A DNA stretch of 64,000 nucleotides from Deltaproteobacteria bacterium (GCA_016210045.1 JACQUX010000019.1:4102-68101); one strand, 5' to 3'. Shown: positions 27,098 through 35,490, counted from the first letter of the stretch. The notes: generated from the letters alone by a model not told the origin. A program made the numbers and translations.

Positions 27098-28081
27098 ATG
27101 CGATTTCCCTTCATCAGTAGTGGTTTGATGGTCTCGCTCCTCTTCACGTCCAACGTCGCTCGCACCACCACGCACATTTCCGCGCAGTGGCGGTGGCCGA
27201 GTACCCGGGAGTTGTTCGAGCGGCCCGTTATTGTCATCGCCACGGTCAGGTCCGGCGGCACCTATTCGGCGGTCGTGCATGTGGATCAGTGGGTCCGCGG
27301 CAAGACGAAGCGGACCATCACGGTCACCGCATTCAACGATCGGTTCCAGTCGGCGTCCGGGGTCCGCCATGGTGCCTTCTATAACGGCGAACAATACCTG
27401 TTATTTCTCAATCCATCGACGAAGACCCACCCGAAGACGCAGGAGGTCCTGGCGGGCGATTACTCGCGCGTCAACCGTTTTTTGGTGCCGGCCCCGTTCG
27501 CTGGGCATTTCCGGGTCTACCCGGCGACGATTGTCGGTTCGTTAATTGACCACAGTGCCGATCGCGCCTTCCCGACGGATGAGCTGCTCGATATGGTGCG
27601 CCTCGCGGTCGTGCCGCCGGACCCCGCACGCCCGGCCGCTGAAAAATATGGGCGCTTTCTTTCGGTGTTGCGGAGTGTGGGCGAGCAAAAGAAGGCCGAC
27701 GCAGCCATGGAAGCCCGCCAACATCTGGGATTGGCGCTGCTGGCGTTACACGGCTCGAGCGCAGACGTCGCCTTGCTGGAGCCCTTCTTGAACCACCCAA
27801 ATCCGGCAATGCGGAGGGAGGCCGTCAGGACAGTGCAGCTTCTCCCCTATCCGCAGGCCGACCATTTATTGGCCCGCTTTCTCTTCAACGATACGCCTGA
27901 CATCGTGTCGGAAGCGGCGTATGTGCTGGGACGGCGCGGCAACGTCCAGGCCCTCCCCGATCTCCAACGCGCGTTACGACACGCGGACCGCTTTCAGACC
28001 CCACTACAGCGCTCCATTGCCGACGCGATCAAAAAACTCCAGGCACGGCGCACGACCGATCATGGATCAACACCGCAGTAA
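27098..28081 (+). CDS. Secreted HEAT/PBS-lyase-repeat protein, hypothetical
   Basis: Signal-like N-terminus; C-terminal repeats (HPNPAMRREAVRTVQLL..., NDTPDIVSEAAYVLGRRG...ALPDLQRAL) of HEAT-like type. Confidence 0.55.
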   Translation: MRFPFISSGLMVSLLFTSNVARTTTHISAQWRWPSTRELFERPVIVIATVRSGGTYSAVVHVDQWVRGKTKRTITVTAFNDRFQSASGVRHGAFYNGEQYLLFLNPSTKTHPKTQEVLAGDYSRVNRFLVPAPFAGHFRVYPATIVGSLIDHSADRAFPTDELLDMVRLAVVPPDPARPAAEKYGRFLSVLRSVGEQKKADAAMEARQHLGLALLALHGSSADVALLEPFLNHPNPAMRREAVRTVQLLPYPQADHLLARFLFNDTPDIVSEAAYVLGRRGNVQALPDLQRALRHADRFQTPLQRSIADAIKKLQARRTTDHGSTPQ

Positions 28082-28260
28082 TATCAGCGAGGCCGAGCGG
28101 GTCTTCGTTCAGGTCGTAATAGCGGCGCGGGAGTAGTAGAGGCCGGTGGCAGCGTCCCACTCGCGGCCGGTGAAGCGGAAGGGATGGGCGTCCGCGGTCG
28201 GTCCGGTCGCGGCGAGGGGGCGGCCGAAGCTGTCGTAGGCAAGGGCGCAAAAGGTTATTT
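28029..28260 (-). pseudogene. Degenerate orphan RHS C-terminal fragment (third rhs remnant)
   Basis: DNA about 85% identical to RHS core-end coding sequence at 30395-30500. Translates, with a frameshift, to ...PFRFTGREWDAATGLYYSRARYYDLNEDPLGLADITAVLIHD... Confidence 0.65.
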
Positions 28261-34336: not shown

Positions 34337-35490
34337 TCGCCCGGCCACGCGCACCTGATAACCCACTTGTGCCGGGAGCAGCGCATTGGGGTTGCGCTCT
34401 CCGGGTCCTTTTGGAAGGCCACGCGCGCCGTCGGGGCCGCCGTCGCGCTCGAATACGCCAGCGTCACCCCGTACGTCGCATCGAGCAGTGCATAGGACGG
34501 GAGCGCAAAGGACTGCATCAGTTCCCCGCTCGCCAGCTTGACCTCCGAGCCGCCGCAACGGCCGTCGCCCAGCCCGACCGAATCCGTCGTCTGCGGCGCA
34601 ATCGCCGTGGGATTGATGGCTCCCGGCGGCATGATGGTCGGGTAATTCAAATCGCGCGGTGAGAAATGGGTGACCTGGTATTCGATCCAGGCCCCATCGG
34701 CCGATATCTTGCCCATCCCCTCGTGTTCCCATTCGGCCGTAGTCTTATTGAAATACCCGACCGGGATCGCGGTACCAGCGGCGAAGCCGCGCGTATTCTT
34801 CACCCGGATCGTGACCGGCTGCGCGAACTGTTGCCCTTCCGGACCCAGTTCGATCGCATGTGTAAAAAAGGAGGTGGACGGCAATGGCCCCGGCAGCGCC
34901 TCGCCAAACGGAAATGCCGTCGCCCGAACCACAGTGCCGACCGACACCGCGCCGGCCGGGGCCTCGACTTGGACCAGCCCGGACGCACTGGTATGACGGC
35001 TCCCTTCGGGACGGAGCGTCCCGATCGCGGCATCCAGCGGTGTCAGGTAGATCGTGCCGACCGCCGTCGGCTGTTGCGCATGCACGGCAAATTTCCGATA
35101 CGCCGACGTATAGTGCAGATGGTGGATGTCGAGAAAGAAGACGCCGCTGCCGTGGACCGGCGTGACGGGAAAACGGAAGCTCCCGTCGTCCCCCGTGACC
35201 AGTTCACCTTCTACGCCACGAACTTGGACTACTGCGCCGTTCAACGGTGCCTTGGTGGCGGTATTGCGGACCGTGCCGACGAGCCATCCACTTTCCGGCG
35301 TCGCAAGGGCTGGCTGCCCCGCGGCCACCCAGCCTTCATCGTTGCCGCCGGGCAAATCGATCAGGCCACTGACTTGTGCAAGTGTCGGGAGGTCGCCTCC
35401 GTCCGCGCTCCCCTCGTCGCGGCAGCCGGCCAACGCCAGTGCCACGCACCACCACACCACCCAGATTCCCGCACGACTCCGCTCGCACAT
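34333..35490 (-). CDS. Lipoprotein with carboxypeptidase-regulatory-like (CarbopepD_reg/Cna-B-type) beta-sandwich domain, translationally coupled to the RHS gene
   Basis: Signal peptide plus lipobox (VALALAGC); GTVRNTATKAPLNGAVVQVRGVEGELVTGDDGSFRF is typical of CarboxypepD_reg-like domains; ATGA coupling. Confidence 0.7.
   Translation of the reverse strand: MCERSRAGIWVVWWCVALALAGCRDEGSADGGDLPTLAQVSGLIDLPGGNDEGWVAAGQPALATPESGWLVGTVRNTATKAPLNGAVVQVRGVEGELVTGDDGSFRFPVTPVHGSGVFFLDIHHLHYTSAYRKFAVHAQQPTAVGTIYLTPLDAAIGTLRPEGSRHTSASGLVQVEAPAGAVSVGTVVRATAFPFGEALPGPLPSTSFFTHAIELGPEGQQFAQPVTIRVKNTRGFAAGTAIPVGYFNKTTAEWEHEGMGKISADGAWIEYQVTHFSPRDLNYPTIMPPGAINPTAIAPQTTDSVGLGDGRCGGSEVKLASGELMQSFALPSYALLDATYGVTLAYSSATAAPTARVAFQKDPESATPMRCSRHKWVIRCAWPGE

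Follow-up and report, generated by a model that had tools for sequence, protein, structure and literature searches.

A stretch of 64,000 nt from the metagenome-assembled genome (MAG) of an uncultured bacterium recorded as 'Deltaproteobacteria bacterium' (GCA_016210045.1, JACQUX010000019.1:4102-68101) was analysed; it is referred to below as the window, and coordinates are counted along its whole length. Its minus strand carries a toxin locus centred on a large protein with NHL and YD/RHS repeats, which an earlier note, made from the sequence alone, had described as an NHL/RHS polymorphic-toxin locus with a tandem array of exchangeable toxin-immunity modules. All of the minus-strand open reading frames (ORFs) listed at that time were recovered at the same positions, and the general assignment was upheld, with a main toxin, one orphan tail/immunity module and a degenerate third core fragment. 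The locus comprises:

34333-35490, minus strand: "lipoprotein" ORF, 385 aa
29849-34336, minus strand: NHL/RHS ORF, 1495 aa
29562-29852, minus strand: small membrane-protein ORF, 96 aa
28780-29526, minus strand: orphan RHS-fragment ORF, 248 aa
28277-28783, minus strand: secreted-protein ORF, 168 aa
28029-28267, minus strand: degenerate third core fragment, in two short frames

The Pfam families proposed for a check of these products (CarboxypepD_reg, NHL and RHS_repeat) were all matched, as was the RHS core in NCBIfam, and the plus-strand TCAT tetranucleotides at 34333-34336, 29849-29852 and 28780-28783 were confirmed. However, the claim that every junction is coupled by an ATGA overlap was too broad, as such overlaps occur at only three of the five junctions, and one of the three is a by-product of a frameshift. 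The 96-aa gene is separated from the orphan ORF by a 35-nt gap, and the 168-aa gene from the third fragment by a 9-nt gap. Taken as a whole, the locus is read here as encoding a bacterial teneurin-like protein (TLP), that is, an RHS toxin made as a Sec/signal peptidase II (SPII) lipoprotein, together with its immunity gene, an orphan cassette and a decayed third core; we put the probability of this reading at about 0.85.

The break within the main toxin gene

Comparison with homologous proteins indicates that a frameshift has split a single gene into the 385-aa "lipoprotein" and the 1495-aa NHL/RHS ORF. When the 385-aa protein was used as the query, only two relatives besides itself were returned, P0002 and P0003, both of which read through the stop codon of the window ORF. 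Their continuation, VAFKKSRENRNQILPQQVGFKVEFEG...YDYSAEITNFYDGSY...CFGC...GSGWG, corresponds to what the RHS frame of the window encodes when it is extended upstream, ERNPNALLPAQVGYQVRVAGRMIAQRF...YPYQAEITHYFAGQY...CFGC...GSGWG. The two window frames tile end to end on the single-chain homologues P0002, P0003 and P0011, meeting at 34399/34398. In P0011 (2332 aa) the entire "lipoprotein" region (34% identity, E 4e-39) is fused to the NHL and RHS repeats, and the same single-chain arrangement, with a teneurin-type transthyretin-like (TTR) domain, is seen in P0099; these two were the only useful matches in a whole-protein homology search that was dominated by unrelated NHL-repeat proteins. What had been taken for a coupled lipoprotein partner is thus the N-terminal third of the same protein, cut off by the frameshift, as single-chain relatives span the break.

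A profile of the N-terminal module (461 positions) was also searched against 1.84 billion representatives. It detected 5,928 proteins at E<=1e-3, while 2,237 representative clusters were found at E<=1e-10 and 319 at E<=1e-30. The best-scoring 150 of these 319 are mostly 1,500-4,700 aa long and cover profile positions ~12-457, across the break, in one stretch; the upstream product of the window ends at position 335 of 461.

Two features define the lesion, which lies in the fibronectin-like plug domain described below:

34395-34415, minus strand: frameshift junction in the plug, where the frames join within CCAAAAGGACCCGGAGAGCGC
34336-34398, minus strand: out-of-frame tail with which the upstream ORF ends, 21 codons (SATPMRCSRHKWVIRCAWPGE), closed by the TGA within the first ATGA

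Homology in the upstream frame runs to VAFQKDPE (34399-34422) and then restarts in the downstream frame at ERNPNALLPAQVGY (from 34399), so that, relative to an intact gene, the lesion is a 1-nt deletion or a 2-nt insertion. Read in the RHS frame, the bases 34336-34398 encode conserved plug residues, and the out-of-frame tail matches nothing in the relatives. The Met of the ATG at 34336 aligns with a non-conserved internal position in homologues; the first ATGA (34333-34336), previously interpreted as coupling two genes, is therefore an out-of-frame stop overlapping an internal Met codon. The frameshift is real and not an assembly slip, since Logan assemblies of two different runs (SRR12113390 and SRR12113401) are 100% identical to the window across it. 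Homopolymers at the junction are short, the longest being 4 nt.

In the NCBI annotation (locus tag HY696_06060) the two halves are entered as separate proteins of 385 aa and 1499 aa (P0004). The latter is four residues longer than the ORF starting with the ATG at 34336; a GTG is present four codons upstream of this ATG (34325-34347 region), and the annotated protein must start there. A pseudogene label appears to be absent from both halves, and the frameshift is therefore hidden by automated annotation.

The rebuilt protein and its relatives

After frame repair the gene encodes, in this order, a lipoprotein signal, a TTR domain, a ZU5-like domain with an HFS motif, a fibronectin-like plug, an NHL propeller, a YD shell, a DPxG-x20-DPxG motif and a 137-aa tail. 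The features upstream of the tail are as follows (a slash within a motif marks a proposed or known cut):

29849-35490, minus strand: rebuilt main toxin gene, ~1,879 aa after frame repair
35422-35433, minus strand: lipobox LAGC with Cys23, at the end of the hydrophobic signal; sequence read directly
35044-35280, minus strand: transthyretin-like (CarboxypepD_reg) domain, residues 71-149; Pfam E 1e-7
34648-35025, minus strand: ZU5-like domain with a ZU5 beta-sandwich fold, residues ~156-281
34660-34668, minus strand: candidate self-cleavage motif HFS, residues 275-277, located where the ZU5-like domain reaches its C-terminal end
34546-34557, minus strand: C-G-G-S, residues 312-315, at the plug start; candidate equivalent of C719...G723/S724 in the solved TLP
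32939-33964, minus strand: NHL beta-propeller, residues ~125-466 of the 1495-aa ORF; Pfam NHL E 8.6e-32, TEN_NHL E 1.2e-40
30263-32938, minus strand: YD/RHS shell and RHS-associated core; 16 RHS_repeat stretches, Pfam E 5.5e-90
30263-30403, minus strand: aspartyl self-cleavage motif R-x12-DPLG-x20-DPNG/T at the end of the shell

When the rebuilt protein was searched against the PDB, the best matches were the entries 9ifo and 9pt5, "Teneurin-Like Protein", with E about 1e-116, followed by Rhs proteins of type VI secretion systems (T6SS; 1e-53) and animal teneurins (about 1e-31). Bacterial TLPs have been defined by a superfold of a fibronectin (FN) plug, an NHL propeller and a YD shell (Raoelijaona et al., Nat Commun 2026, PMC13018210). 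According to the same study, adhesion domains of variable kind, a TTR domain and an insert named "TIP" lie in front of the superfold, the insert being found in 96% of members; the TLPs of Gram-negative bacteria are predicted Sec/SPII lipoproteins; and the polymorphic, toxic tail of about 15 kDa is cut at DPxG and retained within the shell, with an immunity gene next to it (PMC13018210). The architecture that had seemed "not commonly described" is therefore that of the bacterial TLPs. The search from which TLPs were collected required the three superfold domains to be adjacent, ordered and in the same reading frame (PMC13018210). Here the order is right and the first ~50 plug residues lie in the other frame, while the remaining plug, the NHL propeller and the YD shell share a single frame; this departure is due to the lesion, not to a different architecture.

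The individual domains were compared in turn. The main signal sequence reaches a hydropathy of 2.45 over its best 10 aa, and the closest intact relative, P0126, begins with ...LLLLVTAC. Both the TTR domain and the inserted domain are present upstream of the plug. The inserted domain is probably the "TIP" domain of the TLP study, judged by its position; Pfam ZU5 was matched above the cutoff in two relatives. The family profile A2 gave a single kind of match, a weak one to ankyrin ZU5, and none to TLP or teneurin plugs. In PIDD and Nup98 self-cleavage takes place at an HFS motif, which lies at the C-terminal end of ZU5-like domains (PMC3210808), and HF followed by S, T or C occurs in 127 of 150 aligned family members, inside HFSxxDxN.

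The solved bacterial TLP is naturally cleaved at G/S in the plug, within C719...G723/S724, where the Ser is conserved (PMC13018210); by position and motif, CGG/S is a candidate equivalent of this site in the window protein, and the family consensus at the plug start is GSxVxLxxGxL. Over its last third the plug can be aligned, in register, with the plug of the solved TLP (residues 873-928). The plug centre matches the FlgD_ig fibronectin/Ig-like sandwich, both in the PDB (E 6.5e-5) and in Pfam for 11 of 20 family members. The plug searched alone found no match in the PDB, and the plug family profile A4 matched FlgD Ig-like domains, not TLP. The NHL propeller aligns with residues 929-1255 of the solved TLP, with three strong stretches over 873-1254. 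In the shell, NCBIfam Rhs_assc_core (TIGR03696) was matched at residues 1279-1357 (E 3e-26) and YD_repeat_2x with E 2.9e-66. The two DPxG motifs are 24 residues apart and an Arg stands 13 residues upstream, which is the spacing of R2103, D2116 and D2140 in the solved TLP.

The window locus thus resembles known TLPs in domain order, in the cleavage motif with its conserved Arg, in a tail of ~15 kDa followed by a small gene, and in that no dedicated secretion genes were found nearby. It differs in that the gene is frameshifted inside the plug, that the locus additionally holds an orphan tail/immunity cassette and the remains of a third core, and that the host is represented by an uncultured MAG. 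The words 'orphan', 'ZU5', 'frameshift' and 'pseudogene' do not occur in the main text of PMC13018210. Zhang et al. (2012, PMC3482391) had noted that large RHS toxins with beta-propellers carry ZU5 autopeptidase domains N-terminally, and proposed that these domains release the toxin at the cell surface.

Classical Rhs/YD toxins (PMC3482391) also have a YD shell, a core ending in DPxGL and a variable low-GC tail followed by an immunity gene. Classical Rhs loci further share downstream orphan modules of core fragment, tail and immunity gene, which carry the 3' end of the core. Enterobacterial Rhs loci are an example of classical Rhs toxins with such orphan tail/immunity arrays. In contrast to them, the window locus has no PAAR, VgrG or T6SS context, and its protein has a lipoprotein signal and TTR, ZU5 and plug domains, with the NHL propeller inserted as in teneurins. 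Animal teneurins (6FB3, 8fia) differ in turn, as they have neither the ZU5/TIP insert nor the DPxG self-cleavage motif and possess EGF repeats, a transmembrane/intracellular part and an uncleaved ABD/Tox-GHH C-terminus outside the shell (PMC13018210). The ZU5 domains of PIDD and the FIIND of NLRP1 and CARD8 (PMC3210808) sit in cytosolic death-fold signalling proteins, whereas the ZU5-like domain of the window belongs to an extracytoplasmic bacterial toxin, and its self-cleavage is a prediction.

TLPs were found in 139 genomes by NHL-based criteria (PMC13018210). By the cluster counts given above, the TTR-ZU5-plug module is far more widely distributed than that. In the four relatives checked here, the TTR-ZU5-plug module precedes varied inserts before the RHS repeats, namely NHL (P0126 and P0129), FG-GAP (P0132) and laminin-G (P0127). 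Given these inserts and the 319 clusters, the family may be broader than the 139 genomes. A single-protein scan of named-genome contigs found no relative.

The locus of P0003 (L002; 3972-6118, Logan SRR22387996) has a different make-up. A 497-aa ORF with Big_13, ZU5-like and plug domains ends soon after the GxGW motif, and 36 nt downstream an FG-GAP ORF passes almost directly into a terminal piece of RHS core (YDSFG...NPYAFTGREYDSE). The locus, on a short contig, is that of a reduced relative and may represent a second disrupted or minimised member.

Tails, immunity genes and surroundings

The tails, their partner genes and the orphan module are located as follows:

29852-30262, minus strand: main toxin tail (CT1), 137 aa, GC 0.47
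29562-29852, minus strand: candidate immunity gene 1, 96 aa; ATGA overlap with the toxin stop codon
L007 5432-5710, L009 1949-2227 and L010 2413-2655: CT1-partner membrane ORFs at other loci, 80-92 aa
29173-29526, minus strand: orphan RHS-core fragment, residues 1-118 of the 248-aa ORF; RHS_repeat E 1.8e-4
28783-29172, minus strand: orphan tail (CT2), 130 aa
28981-29025, minus strand: CT2 motif HSxxSxHYxGxAxDI
28861-28878, minus strand: CT2 motif HxH (HDHWHL)
28277-28783, minus strand: candidate immunity gene 2, 168 aa; ATGA overlap with the orphan stop codon

The tail of the main toxin is polymorphic, as had been proposed. In most full-length relatives BLAST similarity stops at about residue 1741, the DPNGT core end, and beyond it the relatives carry 70-370 unrelated residues. 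The description of a low-GC tail is likewise borne out: the core has a GC content of 0.653, whereas the main tail has 0.473 and the next gene 0.485, and the drop coincides exactly with the core-end boundary. CT1 had no match in Pfam, NCBIfam or PDB sequence searches, and its AlphaFold2 model, built from a 3-sequence alignment, was unusable, with a predicted local distance difference test (pLDDT) score of 46. A conserved His (YRHQSISVG) and a conserved Cys (DICRSYSQ) stand ~73 residues apart, and going by this pair we would guess at a Cys-His hydrolase, perhaps of the permuted NlpC/P60 (LRAT-like) kind. Two homologues of CT1, with 61-62% identity, were found: in P0124 an RHS-core end directly precedes the tail (NLYTFVLNSPTRYVDRDGL/DIWIEGPN, the slash marking the boundary), and P0125 is a stand-alone protein of 232 aa present on 18 contigs.

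The gene following CT1 had been described as encoding three transmembrane segments; a simple hydropathy scan supports two clear membrane segments, and a third is only possible. Its pairing with the tail is corroborated by CT1 homologues at three other loci, each of which precedes an ATGA-overlapping ORF of 80-92 aa encoding a multi-pass membrane protein. These partners resemble the window 96-aa protein in size, in topology and in a [SP]P[SN][YF] stretch after helix 1. We read the pattern as a conserved tail/immunity linkage, as judged from gene order and topology, in which the immunity partner diverges fast.

The three CT1-type toxins (window 29852-29900, P0124 and P0125) have in common a Ser/Thr-rich end, a ...T-S-R stop and the same ATGA overlap. 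This shared end suggests that the sequence is constrained by the region for translation initiation of the immunity gene, which overlaps it. At the loci L006-L009 (e.g. L007 4737-5710), P0125 and its 92-aa membrane partner form a small island adjoining an integrase-like Arm-DNA-binding fragment and a RelE/MqsA-type toxin-antitoxin pair, flanked by genes for a squalene-hopene cyclase, DXP synthase and a radical-SAM DUF3463 protein (hopanoid/isoprenoid genes). As the pair is found on 18 contigs, this toxin and its immunity gene also move independently of RHS scaffolds.

The orphan module consists of the 3' end of the core followed by a different tail, CT2, and its own small gene; the orphan ORF has its own ATG, with GAGG 8 nt upstream. 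The proposal that the repeated core serves as a recombination handle is plausible. The orphan core (29489-29197) is 87-94% identical in DNA to the main core (30639-30287), and the longest perfect match, 51 nt, is enough for homologous recombination. The orphan core lacks 20 residues (PTAEQPPFRFTGREWDAATG, including FTGREWD) owing to an in-frame deletion of ~60 nt. In the main gene the corresponding residues (orphan 29318-29329 versus main 30420-30467) are bordered by a repeated AATG peptide, which is consistent with a deletion between short direct repeats.

CT2 gave weak matches to Pfam Peptidase_M15_3 (E 0.094) and to the Sonic hedgehog N-domain (E 0.55-0.9), the latter aligned over the metal-binding motif, and is likely to be a zinc cell-wall peptidase of the LAS/hedgehog type. 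Its two motifs could supply the zinc ligands of such enzymes, H-x(6)-D...H-x-H in an SxHxxGxAxD context. No relatives of CT2 were found in the metagenome search. The 168-aa protein encoded by the next gene starts with a hydrophobic signal (best 10-aa hydropathy 2.88) followed by ...HTGSC, and had no family match in Pfam or NCBIfam. Such a pair would be in keeping with a toxin directed at the cell wall whose immunity protein resides outside the cytoplasm.

The third fragment (28237-28087) is 87% identical in DNA to the main core (30502-30333). Its three-frame translation contains an internal frameshift and ends 19 residues past DPLGL, and it overlaps the 3' end of a convergent HEAT-repeat gene (27074-28081).

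The locus is flanked by this HEAT-repeat gene and by a leucine-dehydrogenase-type gene (ELFV_dehydrog). These two genes and the ten other large ORFs of the window that were scanned (RecG, PNPase, NadE, an OPT transporter and squalene-hopene cyclase, among others) proved to be housekeeping genes or to have no family match. By their translations, large ORFs shortly beyond the limits of the locus resemble InfB, NusA and DnaK. In agreement with the earlier note, and with what is reported for TLPs, neither T6SS genes nor genes for two-partner or type I secretion turned up in the window among the flanking genes and the ten scanned ORFs, and no PAAR or VgrG match was found within the toxin protein. 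Two further ORFs, of 246 aa (36881-37621, plus strand) and 199 aa (39699-40298, minus strand), flank the DnaK-like gene; they have hydrophobic N-termini and no Pfam match. Plus-strand ORFs of 724, 327, 288 and 245 aa (30215-34249 and 34666-35532) run antisense to the toxin gene; most likely they are not genes but shadow ORFs of the kind that a coding region of high GC content produces. Matches to internal promoters or terminators in the locus were at or below the shuffle background.

Proposed mode of action, present state and meaning

In an intact protein of this type, the signal peptide and LAGC lipobox would direct the chain through Sec and lead to lipidation of Cys23, with the TTR and ZU5-like domains forming the link between lipid anchor and cage. 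Self-cleavage of the ZU5-like domain at HF/S is probable, and a second cut may occur at the conserved G/S of the plug start, as mapped in the solved TLP. The plug, NHL propeller and YD shell would enclose the ~15-kDa tail, and the R...DPLG-x20-DPNG aspartyl motif, which is present in the sequence, would sever the tail inside the shell. The tail would then be delivered to neighbouring cells by a mechanism not known for any TLP, and kin would owe their protection to the immunity proteins encoded downstream, which for CT1 is a small membrane protein and for CT2 a secreted or lipid-anchored one. The orphan cassette could replace the main tail through homologous recombination over the 87-94% identical core.

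The export of the toxin had been regarded as open. The rebuilt protein, however, starts with a lipoprotein signal (LAGC, Cys23), which points to the Sec/SPII route predicted for Gram-negative TLPs, and the first export step is not mysterious, because the front end belongs to the same TLP gene. For the steps beyond the inner membrane the route has not been established in the literature either, and no dedicated delivery machinery is known for TLPs (PMC13018210).

The frameshift lies ~50 residues into the plug and deprives the cage half of its signal peptide and of the first ~50 plug residues. The main toxin is therefore most likely inactive here, a recent pseudogene whose immunity genes have been kept.

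Several readings other than a recently broken TLP gene were weighed. The one that survives best, which we nevertheless regard as unlikely, is that the split is tolerated, a lipid-anchored TTR-ZU5 stalk and a plug-NHL-shell cage being made as two chains, with the cage re-initiated at the ATGA. The cage begins with an Ala-rich segment, MIAQRFTPAASMALAAAVPV, that may act as a weak, newly evolved Sec signal; it reaches a hydropathy of 1.99 over 10 aa, compared with 2.45 for the true signal, and differs from the family consensus 'WDGRNARGE' at this place. The 1495-codon frame has no interruption, its start codon overlaps the preceding stop, and intact TLPs are cut ~50 residues upstream anyway, at the G/S of the plug (PMC13018210). 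On the other hand, the cage half has neither a lipobox nor a clear signal peptide, ~50 plug residues and 21 junk residues are left on the wrong chain, and the same split is seen in no other family member among the best-scoring 150 of the 319 clusters.

That the organism's gene is intact and the break stems from sequencing or assembly is very improbable; the source is a MAG and a single-base indel is the smallest possible error, but the two runs assembled independently by Logan agree across the junction, where no homopolymer exceeds 4 nt. Hardly credible, in our view, is an ancestral two-gene system in which a lipoprotein, ATGA-coupled to the 1495-aa toxin, serves as its dedicated export or anchoring partner. 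The ATGA at 34333-34336, the NCBI annotation of 385-aa and 1499-aa proteins and the two open frames would suit it, yet in each of the two frames the homology to single-chain relatives extends through the junction, the RHS frame already specifies conserved plug residues in the 21 codons ahead of the ATG, the "lipoprotein" ends in 21 residues that have no counterpart in the relatives, the Met is non-conserved, and the best-scoring members listed mostly span the break in one chain. Programmed -1 ribosomal frameshifting or transcriptional slippage, yielding a regulated low level of full-length protein, was rejected as equally implausible: -1 is the direction needed and an A-AAG site lies in the junction window CCAAAAGG, but the junction has no canonical X-XXY-YYZ slippery heptamer, no long A/T run and no unusually stable downstream RNA fold (z = -0.41), and the best-scoring relatives listed mostly cross this point in a single frame.

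The reading of the locus as a damaged TLP locus has points against it as well. The first third of the plug, including the proposed G/S, gave no direct alignment to the solved TLP or to the Pfam teneurin plug. BLAST and MAFFT detected no significant similarity between the CT1-partner ORFs and the window 96-aa protein, and the zinc-peptidase assignment of CT2 stands on E values of ~0.1-0.9 plus the motif. The toxic activity of both tails is predicted, and for CT1 the fold gave no usable model. The 4.5-kb downstream frame is fully open, and the Met overlapping the premature stop could permit re-initiation. A minority intact allele could exist, the frameshift being judged from assemblies.

With the locus taken as a damaged TLP locus, the main value of the analysis is corrective, in that an unusual-looking "lipoprotein plus NHL/RHS" pair is a standard TLP gene broken by a frameshift, and the organism harbours a new, probably damaged, member of an already described toxin type. 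The proposal that TIP is a ZU5-like domain with HFS is a small addition rather than new biology, ZU5 at RHS toxins having been noted in 2012, and the presence of orphan tail/immunity cassettes at a TLP locus, as in classical Rhs loci, is another small one; the general picture of polymorphic toxins is unchanged. Two wider ideas may be put forward. One is that in every bacterial TLP the TIP insert acts as a ZU5 autopeptidase, its cut at HF/S freeing the cage from the surface, which we hold to be more likely than a working split TLP. A natural split TLP, if true, would show that anchor and cage can work in trans, and ZU5 cleavage, if true, would supply the release step that is listed as unknown in the TLP literature.

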